Source: a virus | Lineage: Duplodnaviria > Caudoviricetes | IMG/VR virus record: IMGVR_UViG_3300000872_000018 | Coordinates: 1 to 32,265 of that record | DNA: 32,265 bases | Direction: 5' to 3' (one strand) | Part shown: positions 16,191 through 25,430 of the stretch, in pieces | Layout of the letters: each line of letters starts with the position of its first letter | How positions within the stretch are numbered: the first letter of the stretch is position 1 | The notes under the pieces: model-generated | What the model saw: the letters and a program-made list of their open reading frames with translations, nothing else | What the model was told of the DNA's origin: nothing | Databases searched by the model: none | Made by a program: the position numbers and the translations under genes

Positions 16191-17087
16191 CGGTGTCTCC
16201 TTCCCAGGGGACAGGGCCCCTGAATAGGGTTGATAAAAACGTGGTTGCGCGGTTTCCGCCGCGTCGGCCAGCTCGCGGGCCACGTTCATGGCGTCCTGGA
16301 AGTTGCCCACGGCATCGGCCAGACCCGCCGCCACGGCCGTCCGGCCGATAAAGACGCGTCCGTCGGCCATGTCCTTGCGAACGGCCTCGGCATCCACCCC
16401 GCGGTTCCTGGCCACGGTGTCGATGAAAATGGCGTAGATGGTGTCCAGCTCGGCCTGGATCACGGCGCGATCGCGGTCGCTCAAGGGCGCCACGTCGCTG
16501 CCCACGGCCTTGAACTCGCCGGCGTGCAGAACCGTGTATTTGACCCCCATGCGCTCGTCGAACTTGCTCCAGTCCGCATGCAGGCAGAGCACCCCGATGG
16601 AGCCCACATCCGCCGTGCGCTCCACGATCACGCGGTCGGCGGCACTCCCCGCCCAGTAGGCCGCCGAGCACATCTGCCCGTTGCCGAAGGCCACCACCGG
16701 CTTCTGCTGCCGGGCCGCGTAGATGATGTCGCTGAAGGCCTCCGTACCGCTCACCGTGCCGCCGGGCGAGTCGATATCCAGCAGCAGGGCCTCCACGTCC
16801 GGATCCTCCAGGGCGGCGGTTACGGTTTCCGCCAGGGCCACGGTGCCGGCAGCTCCCCCGAAAAAGGTCGCCCGCTTGCGCATGACACCCGTCACCGGGA
16901 TGATCGCCACCCCGTCGCGCAGGCGGTAGTCGTCGCGCTCGTCTTCATCGGCGGCCGCCAGGGCCTCGATGTCGACTGCGCCCGAGCGGAAGCGCTCCAT
17001 GGCGGCGTCCAGGGCGGAGAGCGCCTCGGGCCGAATGCTCCACAGGATGTCGATGCCGGGAATGGCGTTGGACTTCTTACTGGTCAT
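15657..17087 (-). CDS. Prohead protease, S49/SppA family, fused to scaffold (lambda gpC-like)
   Basis: LLLDIDSPGG, MCSAAYWAGSAAD, VGSIGV, AGEFKAVG and ADGRVFIG motifs. Confidence 0.92.
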   Translation of the reverse strand: MTSKKSNAIPGIDILWSIRPEALSALDAAMERFRSGAVDIEALAAADEDERDDYRLRDGVAIIPVTGVMRKRATFFGGAAGTVALAETVTAALEDPDVEALLLDIDSPGGTVSGTEAFSDIIYAARQQKPVVAFGNGQMCSAAYWAGSAADRVIVERTADVGSIGVLCLHADWSKFDERMGVKYTVLHAGEFKAVGSDVAPLSDRDRAVIQAELDTIYAIFIDTVARNRGVDAEAVRKDMADGRVFIGRTAVAAGLADAVGNFQDAMNVARELADAAETAQPRFYQPYSGALSPGKETPMDPKKNKAEGAPRTADELAAAFPELAEALRRQGAESINPDAIRTEGAQAEAERLLGLIGVHFGEAAAEKFQAIAATGITPDQYKATAGDTAPGLAHAIQEAAGIEAKKQEMLDAITAAGAPNPGSGAEAPGGDGKDFLALVEEYRAANKCGKAEALQAVIKSHPKAHAAYLKSVNAH

Positions 17088-18708
17088 TGTTGCTCCCTCC
17101 CTGGGCGGGCGCCGCTGTCGGCTGCTTTTCCGGGCCGAAGGGCGGCAGGCCGCGGGATTCGAGATCGTTTTTCTCCTCCTCGAGCTGGCGCACCGTGCGC
17201 TGGGGATCCCCGCCCCGCTCGATGATGCAGGCCTCGCGGGTTTTCAGATTGTTCTTGATCAGCAGGATGTCGGCCTGGGCCTCCTTGATGGGCTCGATGT
17301 TGCCCTTGGGCGATCCGCGAAATTCGCAGGCCGTGAGGGCGGTCATGTCGCGGTAGAAATCCGGGTAGTCCAGGCCGCTGACGAGATAGTTTTCCTCCTG
17401 GAGCATGGTCCAGATGGGCTGGCAGAACCCCTGGCCGAACCAGGTGCGCTCCATGGTGAACACCCGCCAGGCGTCCAGCATGACCGCCCGCATGCCCGCG
17501 TACTGGGTGTCGGATACATCCTTGAAGGCCACGGCGTAGGGCAGGTTGCAGGCCATGGCCAGGGAACGCTTGACCGTCTTGGTGAACGGTTCGAAAGTGG
17601 TGCCCGGCCGGTTGGCGGAAAGGAGATGCGGTTTCTCGCCGGGCGCGCCGTACATGATGCGGCCGGGGTAGGTCTCCTCGTAGCGCTGCCACTTGGTGGC
17701 GCCGTTTTCGCCCAAGCGCCGGTCCGTCATGGTGGCAGCACCGCCTGCCACGTCCCAGGGATTGACCCCGGCCTGCACCTCGATAAAGTAGGATAGCGCC
17801 GCCGTCACCACGTTGGAGACCAGTTCGGCCGAGACCAGATCGTTGAAGTCGCGGAAGAACTTCATGGCCGGCGCCAGGAACGGCCAGCCGCGCACCTGCT
17901 CGGGCTCCTTGCACACGAAGCCGTGCAGCACGTTCCAGCGATGGCCGGTTTTGAAAGGAACCCGCAGGAAATGTTTCGAGACGTCCGGCAGCCGCAGGCT
18001 GTTGCCGGCACCGCTCTTCTTGATCCAGGCTGCCACGGGCTGGCCGTAATCGCCCAGCTCGATGCCGTCGCGGATGTTGCCGGCGTTCATCAGGTCGGTG
18101 GGGGTTTTGACGCGCAGGGGATGGATCACCTGGCAGGCCAAACGAAACGGCCGCATGGGATCCTCGATCATCGGCAGCAGCACGAAGTACTCGCCGTAGC
18201 GCATCATGGACAGCTTGGCCAGGTACTGCACCTGCCCGAAGTTAAGCCGCCCGCCGGCATCCGCTGTGGGGGCCCACTGGCGGTAGGCCCCGCGCATCTG
18301 CGCCGCGAGCTCGGCCTCGCGCTCCGGGTCGAGATCCAGGGTGTCCGGATCCGGCGCCGGGTGCGGCATGAGGCCCGCGCCGATCACGGTGGTGGCGTAG
18401 GTGTCGATGATGCCGGCGGCATGGGGGTCGTTGTTGGCGAGATCGATTGAGCGCTTGACGATCTCGTAGCGCTCCTGGGCCTCGATATGGTTGGAGAAGA
18501 CTTCCTGGGGCCGCCAGTTCTTCATGCTGCCCGTGCGTTTGGCCGCTTCGCGCCGAATGGTGTAGCTGCCCGTGGGGGCCAGCGGCTTGCCGTTGGGGCC
18601 GTATAGCATCGGCGCACCGCCCGGCAGCGCCGCCATGGCGGCCATGGCCCGGCCGAACATCTCGAGCTGGGACTGCATGCCCGCTTCGTATGCTACTGGC
18701 GCCCGCAT
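17077..18708 (-). CDS. Portal protein, lambda family
   Basis: RSIDLANNDPHAAG, IRDGIELGDYGQPVA, PEQVRGWPFLAP and IEPIKEAQA motifs. Confidence 0.93.
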   Translation of the reverse strand: MRAPVAYEAGMQSQLEMFGRAMAAMAALPGGAPMLYGPNGKPLAPTGSYTIRREAAKRTGSMKNWRPQEVFSNHIEAQERYEIVKRSIDLANNDPHAAGIIDTYATTVIGAGLMPHPAPDPDTLDLDPEREAELAAQMRGAYRQWAPTADAGGRLNFGQVQYLAKLSMMRYGEYFVLLPMIEDPMRPFRLACQVIHPLRVKTPTDLMNAGNIRDGIELGDYGQPVAAWIKKSGAGNSLRLPDVSKHFLRVPFKTGHRWNVLHGFVCKEPEQVRGWPFLAPAMKFFRDFNDLVSAELVSNVVTAALSYFIEVQAGVNPWDVAGGAATMTDRRLGENGATKWQRYEETYPGRIMYGAPGEKPHLLSANRPGTTFEPFTKTVKRSLAMACNLPYAVAFKDVSDTQYAGMRAVMLDAWRVFTMERTWFGQGFCQPIWTMLQEENYLVSGLDYPDFYRDMTALTACEFRGSPKGNIEPIKEAQADILLIKNNLKTREACIIERGGDPQRTVRQLEEEKNDLESRGLPPFGPEKQPTAAPAQGGSNNDQ

Positions 18709-18926
18709 CAGTCGCGCCTCGGGATGCCGTAGGTGGATGCCGGCCCGGCGCTAGCCGCCTGCTCGCGGTGGTACCGCGCCAGGAGCTGCTCCTCGCGCCT
18801 GTAGAGCACGGCCAGATCGCCCATGCGGTACCGCTTGCCGTTGACCGAACCTTCCTGCCCCGTCTCGCACAGCGCGATCGCGGCCTGCACTGCTTCCAGC
18901 TGTTCCAGGGTGGTCTTGATTGCCAT
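18708..18926 (-). CDS. Head completion protein (gpW-like)
   Basis: MAIKTTLEQLEAVQAAI...GQEGSVNGKRYRMGDLAVL; TGATG coupling to the portal gene. Confidence 0.75.
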   Translation of the reverse strand: MAIKTTLEQLEAVQAAIALCETGQEGSVNGKRYRMGDLAVLYRREEQLLARYHREQAASAGPASTYGIPRRD

Positions 18927-18931
18927 ACGCA

Positions 18932-19069
18932 AAAACCCCATGATCTGGTGGTCGACTTTAATGCCGCCACCGTATCATGGGGTTTTAGGCCATCGGCGAA
19001 GATACCCCCTAATCGGGGTCAAAAAGGGGGCGAATAAGGGTGACAAAGGGGGTTGACACTAAATTGTCA
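18932..19069 (-). promoter_or_regulatory. Putative late promoter region with an RBS-occluding hairpin and phased repeats
   Basis: 13-bp inverted repeat AAAACCCCATGAT (18932-44) / ATCATGGGGTTTT (18974-86). G-runs start at 19015, 19026, 19038 and 19048. TGACA-N6-TGTCA at 19054-69. Confidence 0.55.
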
Positions 19070-19530
19070 CAAGGCTGAATAGCGGCAGGTAATCACTGCA
19101 TTTAACCGCTATGGATTTCGTGTTATTATCTCAATGTATCACAGATCGAGCCGCCCCCTGATATTTATTACCCCTATTTTTCAGAACTTATTTTCCTGAT
19201 AGGCAATTTAATTCCTATAAAATTCCTGCATCTTGATGCTCTGACTCCTTGGCCTACAATATATTGATTGCACGATTTGTGCATTAGGTATGTAAGTTCA
19301 CTTTCCAACGACACTTCCCTTTCGAAAATTGATTGCGCAATACACGCTTCGGGCATCCCCTTCTGAGTCGATTCCTCCGATCCGACCCTTTTTGCAATCT
19401 CGCTATCCATAAGCTGACAGAAAAGCAATTCGTCCAGGAACATTAATAATCCGGTGGGAAAGGAGGTGATGAAGAAATAACCACTGGGATGTTAGGCAAC
19501 CACCCTTTTACGACAGGAGGTGATTGGAAA

Positions 19531-20187
19531 ATGAAAAAAATGTTAGTAATTAGCGTTGCAACATGGTTTGTTTTAGGCTTCGCGCTGTCGGCCCATGCAT
19601 TGTTAATCGATCGTGGAGGAGGAATGATCTATAGCACTGATATGGATATAACCATTCTTCAGGATGCTAATTATGCCATGACCTCCGGCTATGACGACGA
19701 TGGCTATATGACATGGACGGAGGCCAATAATTGGGTGCAAAATCTAGACTATGGCGGCTATGATGATTGGCGCTTGCCCACCTTTGACCCTGCTTATAAT
19801 CGCGAAGACGTGGCTGTTTACCCTTCGCAGTCGGCGGAATTAAGTGAATTGGCCTATCTCAGGTATGCTGAATTGGAGCCAGATGTCTCAATTATTTCCT
19901 TTGATCCAGCTCCTTTTATCAACTTGGGGGTTTCGGGGGGAGAACAGATGGAGCCCTGGTATTGGTCTGGGACTCTCGACGCGTCATCGCCTGAGCCCGA
20001 CGCATGGCGATTTGACTTCTCGTGTGGCTGATGGGATTCGCCCAGTATAGTCGGTGACTATACAAATTTTGCTTTAGCTGTACGAGATGGTGATGTCGCT
20101 CCCGTCCCTGAACCTACAACAGTGCTTTTACTTGGTACAGGTCTAATTGGTCTTGCCGCATTCGGCCGAAAACGGTTTAGAAAATAA
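19531..20187 (+). CDS. Secreted DUF1566/Lcl-like PEP-CTERM protein with an in-frame TGA (candidate selenoprotein, U167)
   Basis: AGGAGGT RBS and signal peptide ending AHA. MTWTEA...GGYDDWRLPT...YWSGT...AWRFDF motifs. TGT GGC TGA at 20023-31, then in frame WDSPSIVGDYTNFALAVRDGDVAPVPEPTTVLLLGTGLIGLAAFGRKRFRK*. Confidence 0.88.
20029..20070 (+). promoter_or_regulatory. Candidate bacterial SECIS element
   Basis: Perfect 8-bp stem GTATAGTC (20045-52) / GACTATAC (20056-63) with a GGT loop; 21 nt separate the TGA from the loop. Confidence 0.7.
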
Positions 20188-20203
20188 TTTTTTTTACGTA
20201 ATG

Positions 20204-20248
20204 ACATGAAAGGCAGAGCTGGCTTGCTTTGCCTTTCGTGTTTTGTTT
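20204..20248 (+). terminator. Rho-independent terminator of the PEP-CTERM gene
   Basis: ACATGAAAGGCAGAGC / GCTTTGCCTTTCGTGT stem followed by TTTGTTT. Confidence 0.85.
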
Positions 20249-20318
20249 GTGGGTTAATGATTACTCCAACTAGTCTGTAACCTCGTTAACATTGAGATAT
20301 TTGATATCAATCGCATCC

Positions 20319-20567
20319 TTAAAGAGATGATAATTCATGGTCTCGTGGCAATTCGGCCCCGTTCCGGGTATCGATTGTTTTTCCCCTGTTGGCGATAAAA
20401 AACTCCGTCATCCACCGATCTAATGCATCCACGGACGAAAACCAGCGCCCATTGATAAATGTCACCGGAAGTCCGATACGCACTAAAGTGTCGACCACGT
20501 GATCCGTTGTCACGCCAATATGGGCTTTGATGGCCTCCTTGCCGATAAGAATTTTTTTGCTGCTCAA
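20319..20567 (-). CDS. Small Xis/MerR-like winged-helix DNA-binding protein (candidate late regulator)
   Basis: ILIGKEAIKAHIG...GLPVTFINGRWFSSVDALDRW; TTG start overlaps the terminase stop. Confidence 0.65.
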   Translation of the reverse strand: MSSKKILIGKEAIKAHIGVTTDHVVDTLVRIGLPVTFINGRWFSSVDALDRWMTEFFIANRGKTIDTRNGAELPRDHELSSL

Positions 20568-22480
20568 CGTCCCTCCAACCAGCTCGGCCGCTCATACTTC
20601 ACCCGTGGCGGCGGACCCGGAATATTTTTCGGTTTCGGCGCTGGCTTTTCCTCCGGCGGCTTTTCCCAGAACCTCACCTGAAGAATCTCTGCCGCGCAAG
20701 AGCTCAGCACCCCGCAGTCCCAAAGGTGGTTGGGCACGTTCGGCCGGCAGTCCCAGTCGCCCTTCTCGTTGATGAACTCCGCCGTGTAGTGGACCGCATA
20801 GTCCCGCGGCAGGTCCTCGGGCATGCGGATGCTGCCCGGGTCGCCGCCTTTTACCGTGAGGGCCGCCGCGAGCTGGTCTTTGAAATATTTTGTGTTTACG
20901 CGCACGAGCTGCAGCGCACCTGGGATAGGTTTTTTCGTGCCGGGGTAGTATTCGATGCGCGTGTAGGCCAGGGGCTGATTCATGATCTTCTCGCCCTTGG
21001 CCGGCATGATCCTTCCCGGATGGGCGCGGCAGAAATCGTAGACTTCGCCGGTGCGGTGCCCCATGGCATCGATGAGGCCGAAGCGCACCACGTAGCGCGT
21101 GCCGGCGGCATCCTCGTAGGCGTCCGACCACAGCACCCGGGCCAGGGCCGCGAAATTGGGCACGAACCCGCAGCGCACCACCCAGGCGTCGCGCTCCAGC
21201 CCCCAGCCGTTGGCCACGATTTTGAACCAGAAGCCGTTGTCCTGGGTGTCGGCGCCGAAGGTAAGGCAGCTCACCAGGCCGTCGCCGGGAACGCGCCCCA
21301 TGGGCCGTGGCTCGCGCAGGGCCAGGATGGCGTCCTCCTTGCGTTCCTTCTCTCGGATCACCCAGGGCTCAGCCGCATAGCGGTTGAAAAAGTCCTTCAG
21401 GGCCGTCTTGTCCGTCTGCCCTTTGAACCAGGCTGCCATCACCTCGGAGAGGCCCACGAAGGGGCTGTTCCAGCTCGGCAGATGAAAGCCGATGGTCTTG
21501 GGCTTGAAGGCCTCGAGGTAGGCGAACATCTCAACGCCCTTTTCCCGGTGGCGCCACTGCCCGGCGGCCACGGCGCGATCGCGCAGGTGGTCGTCCCATT
21601 GCTCGCCGCAGCCGGCACACGCGTACCAGGCCAGATCCCGGTCCTTGATCTCCTCCGGATCCCTGACGTCCTTGGGCACCCGGACCCGGGCAAGCTCCAT
21701 CCGCTGCCATTTGCCGCACAGGGGACAGCGCACCCAGTAGACGAAAACGGCCCGGCACTTCTTGAGGGCCTGCCAGATAAAGGCGCTCGGCACGGTGGGG
21801 GTCGACGCCCGGATGAACTTGCGCCGGCCGCGAAACACTGTGGCCCGGGCCTCGGCCAGGCCCACCGGCCCGGCCTCCTTTTTGCTGGCGGTCTCGGGAT
21901 ACTTGTCGGTCTCGTCGCAGACCACGTAAGGCAGCGGCTTGTTGGCCAGGCTGGCCGGCGAGCTGGCCCAGCCGAAATAGAGCGCCATGTGCTCCAGGGC
22001 CACCCGGGTGGCCGCCATGTCGTCGGCATAGCCCGTGGCGAACTCCGACAGGCGCCGGGAGCTCGTTATCATGGGCTGGATGCGGTCCCGGCTGTTCTCG
22101 TTGGCCGTCTTCTCATCCGGATAGACGAAAAGCACATCACCCGGGCGCCGGTCGATCAGCCAGCCCACGAAGGTGTTGATGGTTTCCGACTTCGCGCTCT
22201 GGGGCGACCAGCAAAGGTTGACGGTCTCCACGTGCGCCCGCGCCATGGCGTCCAGCACCGGCTGGGCATAAGGCACGGTCTCGTTACGCCAAAGCCCCCG
22301 CCGGCTGCCCTTGGTCACCACCCGGTGCCGCGGCGCCCACTGGCTGGGCTGGATGGGCTTGCGTTTGCGCAGCACCTTGCGCTCCCCGCGGTATGGCCGG
22401 AAGGTATATTCGGTCACATCGCAAAGCTCCGCCGGCAGCCAGCGATCGGAAGTATTTATTGGATGAAGATGTGTGGTCAT
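20564..22480 (-). CDS. Terminase large subunit, lambda GpA family
   Basis: WRNETVPY, SPQSAKSE (Walker A-like), VVCDETDKYP (Walker B), ASTPT, CPLCG, FGADTQ and NHLWDC motifs. Confidence 0.95.
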   Translation of the reverse strand: MTTHLHPINTSDRWLPAELCDVTEYTFRPYRGERKVLRKRKPIQPSQWAPRHRVVTKGSRRGLWRNETVPYAQPVLDAMARAHVETVNLCWSPQSAKSETINTFVGWLIDRRPGDVLFVYPDEKTANENSRDRIQPMITSSRRLSEFATGYADDMAATRVALEHMALYFGWASSPASLANKPLPYVVCDETDKYPETASKKEAGPVGLAEARATVFRGRRKFIRASTPTVPSAFIWQALKKCRAVFVYWVRCPLCGKWQRMELARVRVPKDVRDPEEIKDRDLAWYACAGCGEQWDDHLRDRAVAAGQWRHREKGVEMFAYLEAFKPKTIGFHLPSWNSPFVGLSEVMAAWFKGQTDKTALKDFFNRYAAEPWVIREKERKEDAILALREPRPMGRVPGDGLVSCLTFGADTQDNGFWFKIVANGWGLERDAWVVRCGFVPNFAALARVLWSDAYEDAAGTRYVVRFGLIDAMGHRTGEVYDFCRAHPGRIMPAKGEKIMNQPLAYTRIEYYPGTKKPIPGALQLVRVNTKYFKDQLAAALTVKGGDPGSIRMPEDLPRDYAVHYTAEFINEKGDWDCRPNVPNHLWDCGVLSSCAAEILQVRFWEKPPEEKPAPKPKNIPGPPPRVKYERPSWLEGR

Positions 22481-22749
22481 TATTTTTTCCTGGAACAAAT
22501 ATGATGGGCCTTCTATCCGATTAAGTTTTTTTGGAGATCACAATTGCGGATAACAGTATTTGAAGGACTTTTTCTTTCTAGCAATAACTTATAATAACAT
22601 ATTTTGAAGCTCTTTGATCAACAAAGATGATTATTAGAATTCTTTTTAATTGCCGATATTAATAGAAAAAATTGACATTGAATTTATTTGCCTGTATCAA
22701 TTTAGTCTCTCTTACCGCAACAAAAACCGTAACGAAAAACATAGCCGGC

Positions 22750-23133
22750 ATGAGTATAAATTATTATTTCGAAAACGGGTTGGCGGTCTTCACGGCTGAT
22801 GGTATCTCCCCATACGAGGAATTCATTTCCGTTTTTAATTGCCTATCTCACGACCCCTCTGCGGCTACTCCCCTTAAAATTATTTTCGATACGCGCCATA
22901 CGGATTACGCACCGCCTTCCAATGAAATTAAATCTTTAATCGGACATCTGGGAAAAAACACAATTTACCTGGACAGCCGGTGGGCCATCGTAGCGTATAG
23001 GAATTCTCTTCAGTTTGGCGTAGGCCGCATGTTTGGGAGCTTGGCAGAAAGTCACGGCATTTGCTCTGAGACTTTTTCGGATATCGATGTTGCCCGCTCC
23101 TGGCTACTTCAACCCGAAAACAAGACGGTTTGA
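22750..23133 (+). CDS. STAS/SEC14 (SpoIIAA-like) domain protein, moron 1
   Basis: IIFDTR, RWAIVA, LQFGVGRMF and FSDIDVARSWL motifs; AT-rich; TTGACA at 22672-77 upstream. Confidence 0.75.
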   Translation: MSINYYFENGLAVFTADGISPYEEFISVFNCLSHDPSAATPLKIIFDTRHTDYAPPSNEIKSLIGHLGKNTIYLDSRWAIVAYRNSLQFGVGRMFGSLAESHGICSETFSDIDVARSWLLQPENKTV

Positions 23134-23179
23134 GGTTCCGACTCCAAGCGACCTGCATTTCGCTTGTTCTTTTGAACCC

Positions 23180-23917
23180 CTAACTTCTCTTCTTCTTAAA
23201 CAGCACATGCGCCATGTCCATGGTGGCATAGTCGTTCATCACCAGGTCCTTTTGCGCCAGCATGGCGTCCACCAGGAGCTGCTCCTTTTTCGGGTTGCCG
23301 CCGACGAGCTGGATCCAGGTGGCGGCCTTGGCCCGGATCACGCTCTCGAGCTGGGCGTCCATCCACCCGGCCCGGGCCGCGAACTCGAGCCCCAGGTCCT
23401 TTTTGGGCAGCCACTTGCCCATTTCCTTTTCCATCTCCCAGGCAATCTGGGCGTCCTTGCGCCGTTTGATGGAGATGTCGAGGCGCTTCTCCTCCTGGAC
23501 CAGCGGCCGCAGCTCGGCATCCTGCTTGCCGTCATCAGACGGTTTGAGATTCTCGTAAGCGTAGGCCATAAGCGCGGACTCGCGCACCCGGTTGCCGTCC
23601 GCGGTCTGCAGCAGGCCGTCGGCCGCATCCTTGTAGAGCTTGCTCTTGGAGACCTTCCAGCCCTCCTCCTGGAGATAGGCCAGCGCCGCCATGAGATGCG
23701 GAAACACCTCTTCGTGCGGAAAATATTTCTCGTAGATCCGGTTGACCGCCGCCTCGAGGCCCTGCTTGGCATCCTCCCAGTTCTTGCGCCGGACCGCCGT
23801 GAATTCCGCCTGGTACGCCTCAAGGTTTTCGGTTACCGCCCGCTGCAGCACCTCGATCTCGGCCAGTTCGCCGGACAGGGCCACATCATTCAATTGTGCG
23901 ATCTTCTCTTCCATCAA
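23180..23917 (-). CDS. Putative terminase small subunit (Nu1-like)
   Basis: Central wHTH-like segment (GWKVSKSKLYKD), then coiled coil and EMGKWLPK; nearest same-strand gene upstream of GpA. Confidence 0.55.
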   Translation of the reverse strand: MMEEKIAQLNDVALSGELAEIEVLQRAVTENLEAYQAEFTAVRRKNWEDAKQGLEAAVNRIYEKYFPHEEVFPHLMAALAYLQEEGWKVSKSKLYKDAADGLLQTADGNRVRESALMAYAYENLKPSDDGKQDAELRPLVQEEKRLDISIKRRKDAQIAWEMEKEMGKWLPKKDLGLEFAARAGWMDAQLESVIRAKAATWIQLVGGNPKKEQLLVDAMLAQKDLVMNDYATMDMAHVLFKKKRS

Positions 23918-23933
23918 AACTCCTGACTACGCA

Positions 23934-25430
23934 TCAGCACGAAAAAAAATTCCTGCCGTTCACCTTCGCCGCTTTGTGTTCCAGGATGTGCTCCAGCACT
24001 CCGTCGCCGAGGAAGATCAGGTTGCACAGCTCGCGGGTCAGGGCGGGCCGCTCCTGGAAGTATTCCGGCTCCACCACCCGCACACCGTCGTAGGTAATGA
24101 TCAGGCCGCACGCCGCGTGGGCCCGGTGCTCCCGGTACTTTTCGACACAGACCTGGGGGAATTCCCGCAATAGGGCGCCCACCCTCTGCACATCCGCCGA
24201 TAAGTCCGCCAGGCCGTCCGCCGGATCCGAATTGCGCGGCGGTTGCGCCGCCGGCTGCGCGCCTTCCACCGGCAGCTCAGAATCAGCAGATACATCAACT
24301 GCTGCAGGTACATGCCCTCCCCCTTTCCGCTTCAGATGGTCCATGGCCAGACGCCGCATGGTGACCGCCTCGGGCAGCCCGGCCATGATCCAGCGCCGCA
24401 CGTCCTGGCCGGCCTCGAACATCTCGCCCACATCCTTGGCCCCCACGGCAGGCCAGCGCCGGGCATTGGGAAACGCCGCCCGCCATTTGTCCCAGGCCGC
24501 CTTGCCCGCCCGGTCGAAATCCAGCGCCACCAGGATCACCTGGCAGCCTTCGAGGAAGGCCAGATCCTGGGGCTGGGGCAGGGCCCCACTGGTGCCCGTG
24601 GCGACAACCCCCACGAGATCACCGACCGCTTCGGCTGCGGCCAGGCCGTCGAGTTCGGTCTCCAGCACCACGGCCGCCGGCTGATCGCGGTAAACCGCCG
24701 TGTGAAGCACCGTGGACCCCGGCACCACGTAATATTTGTTCTTGGCCAGGGGCGGCATGTCCGGCGGATGGCGCCGGATCCGGATCTTGCGCAGGCACCC
24801 GCTGGGATCCCGCCATGGGATCACGATGCCCCGGGGCAGCCAGAGTGGCTTCGGCCGCCCGTTGTCCCTGGTCTCTCGCGGCAGGCCCCAGGCCTTGCGG
24901 GCCCGGTAGAGGCACGGCTTGCCGTTCTCCCCGGGGTTCCATCCCAGGCCCCACCGCTCCACAGCAGTGCGTTTCACACCGCGTCGGTCCAAATAGTCCA
25001 GGGCCTCCGGGTTATTGAGAAGCTGCCGGTGGGCCCAGTCCGCGAACTTGCCGGCATGCTCGCGCCACAGGGCCAGATCCCCCTCGGGCACGTTCACCGG
25101 CCGCGGGGCCCAGGCCGGCGGCTGCGGCTTCGGGTCAAACGGCCGCCGCGGCGGGCGCGGCCCCGGATCCCGTCCGCACTTGTCGCAGGCCTCCTGGAAA
25201 CCCAGGCCCATGTAATCCCGGCAGAACTGGATGTTGTCACCGCCGCGATCGCAGTTGCGGCACCACCAGGAACCGGTACCGCCGTTCTGCTCGGGCCACA
25301 CGTGAAAGCCATCCTCCTGGGAGCAGCCCGCCTTGGGGCAGCGGCTCCAGTACTCGGCGCCGCGCTTGCCGCCGCGTTGGGCCAGCCTGGGCTCGATGCC
25401 CATTTCTCGAAGCAGATCCAGGACGTTCAT
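23934..25430 (-). CDS. DNA primase (CHC2 zinc finger + TOPRIM)
   Basis: CPKAGC...FHVW...WWCRNCDRGGD; VLETELD and VALDFDRAG TOPRIM acidic motifs; KDVGE. Confidence 0.88.
   Translation of the reverse strand: MNVLDLLREMGIEPRLAQRGGKRGAEYWSRCPKAGCSQEDGFHVWPEQNGGTGSWWCRNCDRGGDNIQFCRDYMGLGFQEACDKCGRDPGPRPPRRPFDPKPQPPAWAPRPVNVPEGDLALWREHAGKFADWAHRQLLNNPEALDYLDRRGVKRTAVERWGLGWNPGENGKPCLYRARKAWGLPRETRDNGRPKPLWLPRGIVIPWRDPSGCLRKIRIRRHPPDMPPLAKNKYYVVPGSTVLHTAVYRDQPAAVVLETELDGLAAAEAVGDLVGVVATGTSGALPQPQDLAFLEGCQVILVALDFDRAGKAAWDKWRAAFPNARRWPAVGAKDVGEMFEAGQDVRRWIMAGLPEAVTMRRLAMDHLKRKGGGHVPAAVDVSADSELPVEGAQPAAQPPRNSDPADGLADLSADVQRVGALLREFPQVCVEKYREHRAHAACGLIITYDGVRVVEPEYFQERPALTRELCNLIFLGDGVLEHILEHKAAKVNGRNFFSC

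Follow-up and report, generated by a model that had tools for sequence, protein, structure and literature searches.

A candidate selenoprotein with a lectin-like fold and a PEP-CTERM anchor carried as cargo in a lambda-like prophage

In the window (the whole 32,265-nt stretch of viral DNA that was analysed), we found a bacterial cargo gene in a lambda-like prophage whose reading frame is interrupted by one UGA codon. We consider it likely that this UGA is read as selenocysteine (Sec) and that the product is an exported, exosortase-anchored surface protein with a lectin fold; by this we mean that the window's own copy yields a surface-sorted protein in which Sec is the predominant residue at the site. 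That the UGA of this family is recoded at all is close to certain, and the recoding is most likely to Sec. In the mechanism that we propose, SelB of the host would bind a hairpin behind the UGA and insert Sec there, and the insertion would complete both the domain and the anchor. The signal peptide would export the protein, an exosortase would process its VPEP motif, and a thiol/selenol pair (C-G-U here, U-G-U in relatives) would lie on a beta-turn of the exposed face and point outward.

A low-GC gene between phage head genes

The features of the gene and its surroundings are collected in Table 1. In frame from ATG 19531 there is a single internal stop, TGA 20029-31 (codon 167), and we confirmed in the sequence what the preliminary description had stated: the frame stays open for another 51 codons past this TGA, to TAA 20185-87, and C165 is the sole Cys of the read-through product. 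The terminator that it had placed after the gene corresponds to a 17-pair terminator-like stem. The read-through gene has a GC of 0.47 and a GC3 of 0.44. A contig from a second study (run X2; assembled contigs, not raw reads) is identical to the window over 19803-20871, and locus L021 is identical to the window product at the protein level; L021 stands on a 432-kb contig, which suggests that the prophage is integrated there.

Table 1. Positions of the gene, its signals and its phage flanks in the window, and of the selC*-like operons in two proxy genomes.
Feature	Position	Strand	Remarks
Lambda-type portal, flank	17077-18708	-	
Head-tail adaptor, flank	18708-18941	-	
Low-GC slot between gpW/portal and terminase	18986..20563	.	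GC 0.46 vs 0.62 for the window
Cassette common to the window and the run X3 contig	19125..20277	+	44 differences in 1153 nt
Ribosome-binding site AGGAGGTGA	19515..19523	+	7 nt upstream of ATG 19531; seen in the sequence
Full gene with UGA read through, 218 aa	19531..20187	+	signal peptide, lectin-fold domain, PEP-CTERM anchor
Likely signal peptide, residues 1-23	19531..19599	+	by eye: basic start, hydrophobic helix, A-x-A end
C-type-lectin-fold domain (Lcl_C/DUF1566-like), about residues 24-187	19600..20091	+	Pfam E 7e-8 (below cut-off); structure model
TGT-GGC-TGA, the C165-G166-U167 motif	20023..20031	+	relatives: C-x-U, U-G-U, C-x-C
SECIS-like hairpin, 8-bp stem, GGU loop	20045..20063	+	folding, conservation, consensus model as given in the accessible text of PMC13188914
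PEP-CTERM sorting signal, residues 191-218: VPEP, transmembrane helix, basic tail	20101..20184	+	Pfam/TIGR02595, structure model
Intrinsic-terminator-like hairpin, 17 pairs, at the cassette end	20203..20242	+	sequence folding
Lambda-gpA-type terminase large subunit, flank	20564..22498	-	
selC*-selB*-cysS*-like operon	L177:1859-5366 (G249); L121:1377 onward (G001)		tRNA identical in both genomes

The gene lies on the strand opposite to the lambda-like head module. In the closest related prophage that we found, which is in genome G249 (portal 93% identical in amino acids, terminase 92% in nucleotides), the same slot (L150:15007-16792) holds two other reverse-strand ORFs, one of 356 aa with an ion-channel domain and one of 228 aa and unknown type, and G249 itself does not carry the TGA gene. 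On the contig from run X3, the cassette is bordered on both sides by DNA unrelated to the window, and the corresponding terminase-portal slot of another lambdoid viral contig is occupied, in the same orientation, by an Lcl-type gene of non-Sec form that is frameshifted and has a PEP-like tail (L102:5968-6800). Because the slot is refilled in G249, the cassette stands in unrelated DNA in X3 and L102 has a relative in the same place, we conclude that the gene is a moron: it is an extra gene between conserved phage flanks, replaced in a close relative, of atypical composition and with its own terminator. The preliminary description had called it a moron, and slot exchange, low GC and the terminator agree with this.

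The backbone edges of the slot are marked by two features that have counterparts in the G249 prophage: an inverted repeat of 20 bp where the head-tail adaptor gene starts (18932-18986) and a short ORF that follows the terminase (20335-20595). A second low-GC island at window 22500-23150 holds a 153-aa plus-strand ORF (22672-23133) of no known family, and the G249 prophage has no match to window 21954-24564. Within the slot, Rfam gave three weak matches, all far below the gathering score; the leader of the gene folds no better than shuffles, and the upstream DNA has nothing in common with other loci except the short backbone ORF. A second strong ribosome-binding motif lies about 65 nt before the start, within a hairpin, and is followed by ATG-AAG-AAA-TAA (window 19441-19497); similar motifs are present at L001, L036, L037, L040 and L043. 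Further upstream, a short inverted repeat (TGCAC-N5-GTGCA, window 19269-19283) is a possible regulator site.

A scan of genes next to members of the family covered 52 of 88 ORFs picked from 14 loci, with 11 TGA-form loci and one Cys-form locus contributing. The neighbours that could be named encode GlnRS, TetR, transhydrogenase, RNA cyclase, HepT/nucleotidyltransferase pairs and, near the TGA gene in L037, an exosortase-like protein, and none of the scanned neighbour ORFs at the 11 other TGA-form loci belonged to a virion or packaging family. No relative appeared in a single-protein scan of viral contigs or among 50,697 GenBank phage records, and an alignment-based scan of viral contigs gave 19 loci, with TGA in 0 of 14 aligned rows. 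The family is mainly chromosomal or cellular, not phage-specific. Among 401 genomes sampled from the class, eight had matches, with two TGA-form genes among them; among 401 sampled from the phylum, 11 had matches and the TGA form was found in G001 only. The TGA form is rare, not absent, in the genomes searched.

It is unlikely, in our view, that the family is one of true selenoproteins while the window's copy is silent or stranded, being either untranscribed or in a host unable to decode or anchor the product. The evidence for sel genes and exosortase does come from proxy genomes (G001 and G041, which carry the TGA form, and G249, the host of the closest prophage, from the class sample) and not from the window's own host. 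Promoter-like matches upstream of the gene are at chance level (4 vs 2.7 ± 1.5), contigs from an RNA run (X7) reach just 19482-19729, belong to a relative and are uninformative on expression, and the frameshifted L102 gene indicates that such cargo can decay. However, the ribosome-binding site, frame, hairpin, anchor and terminator of the window's copy are all intact, and the genome of the closest prophage has all the sel genes, an exosortase and several PEP-CTERM-like matches.

The internal UGA and the residue that it encodes

A homolog search returned 627 proteins, and the best 120 of these, nearly all of which bear the PF07603 label, were listed and classified. Among these 120, 51 stop at exactly the codon of the UGA (...C-G) and nine stop two codons earlier, ten are full length with C-A/G-C-W at the site, 49 are full length without Cys at either site and one has an unrelated tail. 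All 25 of the top homologs (57-95% identity) end at codon 164 or 166, as do 60 of the 120 listed, and a profile search of cluster representatives gave more ...C-G ends among its best 150. At the DNA level, the aligned codon is TGA, and always TGA, at 26 other loci (L001, 24 of 80 retained metagenome loci and L129; the window and its identical copy L021 are not counted). These 26 loci include near-copies and hold 19 distinct downstream sequences besides the window's; the identity of their upstream parts to the window is 43-78% when the 13-residue stub of L048 is set aside. Coding sequence after the TGA is as conserved as that before it (60-68% vs 52-78% in five pairs), with many synonymous changes. 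Such conservation to either side of an in-frame UGA is expected of a bacterial selenoprotein gene.

The preliminary description had held that the UGA is recoded at a position aligned with Cys. Position 167 does alternate between TGA (at the 26 other loci) and Cys (C-A/G-C in ten of the 120 listed homologs), the sister group has Cys at the aligned position, and none of the results that the description had named as contrary to recoding appeared. Elsewhere in the phage TGA is an ordinary stop, the commonest one in the window (18 of 35 tallied ORFs, including the terminase, head protease and head-tail adaptor genes), which points to site-specific recoding at 20029-31 and not to a change of code.

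In a quick tree, built from few columns (residues 24-163, motif omitted), all 71 stop-type and C-x-C proteins fall to the same side of one branch (SH-aLRT 99), and the ten C-x-C proteins group together (SH-aLRT 99). The nine early-stop proteins, of which only two were seen as TGA at the DNA level, are scattered, with eight changes, at least three of them forced by strong branches. In the other TGA loci, codon 165 is Cys in 25 of 26 and TGA in L022 (TGA-GGC-TGA, L022:1360-1368). Codon 165 is likewise TGA (20025 T>A; codon 167 is not in view) in contigs from runs X3 and X4, whose identity to the window is about 96%. U-G-U alleles, in which the codon of the partner Cys is also TGA, apparently arose more than once. 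In such alleles, two UGAs, at distances of 27 and 21 nt, would share a single hairpin.

Behind the UGA lies a SECIS-like hairpin, which the preliminary description had given as an 8-bp hairpin 21 nt downstream. The 8-bp stem is as described; however, 21 nt is the distance from the UGA to the loop, and the stem starts 13 nt after the UGA. With its GGU loop, 8 bp and 21 nt, the hairpin lies within the geometry stated in the accessible text of PMC13188914 (loop of 3-9 nt, stem of 4-16 bp, G at loop position 1 or 2, spacing of 16-37 nt). The energy limit given there is –7.5 kcal/mol or below, and the window hairpin is borderline in this respect, with –8.9 kcal/mol, or –7.2 kcal/mol as an isolated stem. 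Taken alone, it is modestly above chance (z –2.2 over 49 nt, –0.9 over 62 nt), and its weight therefore comes from conservation across homologs, not from its own folding score.

We compared pairing in the TGA loci with several controls. Across the 19 distinct TGA sequences, pairs form in 99 of 133 stem cells, as compared to 72 ± 4 after synonymous re-coding (0 of 2000 as high). In the alignment, 75% of cells pair as compared to 37-49% in slid registers, and the stem has 27 two-sided changes (0 of 500 shuffles); both of these alignment controls are inflated, since the structure that was counted is that of the window itself and the rows are relatives of one another. A G is present at +22 in 16 of the 19 TGA sequences and in 34 of 81 other rows. 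A simple SECIS-like rule picks out 16 of 20 TGA loci, none of the 3 Cys loci and 11 of the 81 other rows, a set with some repeated or off-register members. The folding energy of the 60-nt stretch behind the UGA barely exceeds that of synonymous controls (mean z –0.6) and separates TGA loci poorly from controls, whereas position-specific pairing does separate them. Geometry that fits the consensus, and co-varying pairs across the TGA loci, which the preliminary description had proposed to look for, both speak for its SECIS-like hairpin with a G-initiated loop.

In the proxy genomes G001, G041 and G249, we found selA, selB, selD with an internal TGA, a tRNA-Sec match above cut-off and an exosortase; the exosortase is above cut-off in G075 as well. 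On this count G041 and G249 have the complete selA/B/C/D set, and G001 has selA, selB and selD. In G001 and G249, a UCA tRNA with A1:U72 and U73 stands directly before a second selB and a second cysS, and in G001 this tRNA is the only tRNA-Sec-like match above cut-off. The arrangement resembles the selC*-selB*-cysS* operon that Mukai et al. describe for Desulfobacterales, whose selC* tRNA was shown to be able to insert Cys in E. coli at a UGA meant for Sec (PMC5389517, in the sections accessible to us). With an operon of this kind in G001 and G249, insertion of Cys at the UGA, wholly or in part, has to be taken seriously. We nevertheless regard it as improbable that the UGA is read mainly as cysteine, by selC* tRNA(Cys, UCA), SelB* and CysRS*, to give a C-G-C surface protein or a mixture of Cys and Sec set by selenium supply. 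In favour of it, sister proteins with C-x-C exist; against it, the same sections report that every genome with selC* also has the complete Sec apparatus, the TGA gene occurs in G041 together with one selB and one tRNA-Sec match above cut-off, and the repeated change from Cys to stop at codon 165 is easier to understand as selection for selenium than as a harder way of coding Cys. Sec thus remains our preferred residue at the site.

A real stop at the TGA, whether a nonsense allele, a sequencing error or a programmed short secreted form, is very improbable. Gene callers do end the homologs at this codon, and TGA is the commonest stop of the phage; however, the TGA recurs at the same codon in the other loci down to 43% identity, conserved coding sequence follows it, the sister group has Cys at the site, the contig of the second study is identical, and termination would remove two strands of the predicted domain. 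Judged from the sequences compared, conservation largely refutes a real stop. Genome-wide reassignment of TGA to Trp or Gly (codes 4 and 25) in phage or host, for which we found no supporting point, has a negligible probability: it is refuted by the ordinary use of TGA as a stop across the window's ORFs, and all eight Trp codons of the gene are TGG, the aligned sister residue is Cys and not Trp or Gly, and the window has no tRNA genes.

Predicted fold, anchor and possible function

The match of the window protein to Lcl_C/DUF1566 (PF07603) falls just under the gathering cut-off (33.2 vs 34.9 bits, E 7e-8), and a search of the PDB by sequence gave no match. A structure model, built with C in place of U (mean pLDDT 87.6), has a C-type-lectin-like fold, as the preliminary description had proposed, and its best match is the C-terminal domain of Lcl (8q4e; Z 11.2, rmsd 4.9, 121 aligned, 22% identity), which is also top by Foldseek; lower matches are other bacterial lectin-fold and FGE-type domains. 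The signal-like region is helix 2-19 in the model, and A23 is invariant in the homolog alignment. The extension past the TGA holds the PEP-CTERM signal that had been claimed for it: residues 191-214 match above cut-off in both Pfam (28.1 vs 20.7 bits) and TIGR02595 (25.7 vs 16), and none of the named PEP-CTERM families in NCBIfam reaches its cut-off for the window protein.

In the model, a turn that carries C165-G166-U167 joins strands 157-162 and 167-169. A backward count from the ends of the alignment (187 to 401) would put the site near K380 of Lcl, which is part of the sugar-binding surface described in the accessible text of PMC11162425. The preliminary description had placed C-G-U in the ligand-binding segment, and this holds as a rough placement, since it depends on counting back from the end of the structural alignment. 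DUF1566 domains are described as the variable, exposed ends of DGR targets (PMC5758913, accessible text). Since the last strands of the domain and the anchor are both encoded behind the UGA, surface display would depend on its decoding.

In 11 of the 26 other TGA loci, PEP-CTERM follows right behind the domain, and the others have longer tails. In L032, L035, L039, L041, L042, L045, L051 and L060, the TGA-bearing lectin domain stands before long non-PEP-CTERM tails; these tails behind the UGA are repeat-rich, with thrombospondin type 3 in L039 and L041, and reach more than 950 residues.

A C-x-C-type spacing suits the ligation of soft metals better than a disulfide of the thioredoxin type, and for this reason we rank metal capture first among putative jobs. 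Capture of soft metal ions or metal sulfides is a serious possibility, though one that we would stop short of calling probable; thiol/polysulfide redox chemistry is conceivable, and covalent adhesion or cross-linking is doubtful. A defence role was considered, and PADLOC, without a match, gave no sign of one.

Tentatively, we would go further and suggest that a lectin-fold binding site has been turned into a selenol site (C-x-C, C-x-U and, repeatedly, U-x-U from one hairpin), that it is displayed by way of an exosortase with an anchor made only upon recoding, and that the prophage may actively deliver this selenium-gated surface trait to sulfate-reducing hosts for soft-metal capture or extracellular redox.

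Relation to known systems

We searched catalogues and literature for the family. The 2026 inventory of 119 prokaryotic selenoprotein families contains, in its accessible text and tables, no Lcl/DUF1566 (PF07603) or PEP-CTERM entry (PMC13188914). In NCBIfam (June 2026), no selenoprotein model matches at E up to 0.1, and only PEP-CTERM-type models match the window protein. A lectin-fold/PEP-CTERM family is absent from the BSepDB main text and from the deep-Sep text and four supplements, PEP and DUF terms are absent from the Olavius paper, and a literature search, with most subscription papers outside its scope, found neither this family nor any natural phage selenoprotein described. We judge the selenoprotein family to be real and probably undescribed, here riding as prophage cargo; it is apparently unlisted in the catalogues searched, with an unusual fold and location.

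If true, this would add to the bacterial selenoproteome a lectin-like fold and a surface-sorting route, neither of which is in the 2026 inventory. At least 60 database proteins are cut at the UGA and have lost the anchor, so that the family is systematically mis-annotated. Alleles with C-x-C, C-x-U and U-x-U occur in nature, one of them in a cassette that shares about 96% identity with that of the window; they offer a ready test of what selenium contributes at a surface site, and the U-x-U alleles a test of one hairpin serving two UGAs six bases apart. The prophage would also be an example of cargo in need of recoding by its host, within a group in which UGA may stand for Sec or for Cys.

Among viruses, the selenoproteins named in the accessible text of PMC8310308 are poxviral, namely the glutathione peroxidases of molluscum contagiosum and fowlpox, whose genes are derived from the host. 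They differ from the window's gene in belonging to eukaryotic viruses, to a known enzyme family and to another SECIS system. Among bacterial selenoproteins that depend on SelB and SECIS, the nearest are C-x-U families such as rhodanese form 3 (NF041203), the UshA-like family (NF041198), ferredoxin-thioredoxin reductase (NF041072) and Sec.1, in which the UGA is likewise aligned with Cys (PMC13188914, its Table 1). The window's gene shares with these the hairpin with a G-led loop 16-37 nt downstream, the C-x-U spacing and the two-Sec forms, as given in the accessible text of PMC13188914; unlike them, its protein has a C-type lectin-like fold and a PEP-CTERM anchor.

In structure, the best match is the Lcl C-terminal domain (DUF1566, PF07603; 8q4e), also a lectin-like domain displayed at the surface. 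It is described as a trimer that binds glycosaminoglycans via basic residues and has no disulfides (PMC11162425, accessible text). In contrast to Lcl, the window protein has no collagen stalk, ends in PEP-CTERM, carries a Cys/Sec pair and stays just under the Pfam cut-off. With PEP-CTERM proteins (TIGR02595, PF07589; exosortase TIGR02602) it has in common the likely signal peptide, VPEP, transmembrane helix and basic tail, and it differs from the others in that its anchor would be made only if the UGA is recoded.

The concept of the moron is an established one for lambdoid prophages. Like lambdoid morons, the window's cargo is a low-GC gene with its own ribosome-binding site and terminator that lies between head genes and is replaced in a close relative; unlike other morons, it would need two systems of its host, UGA recoding and exosortase.
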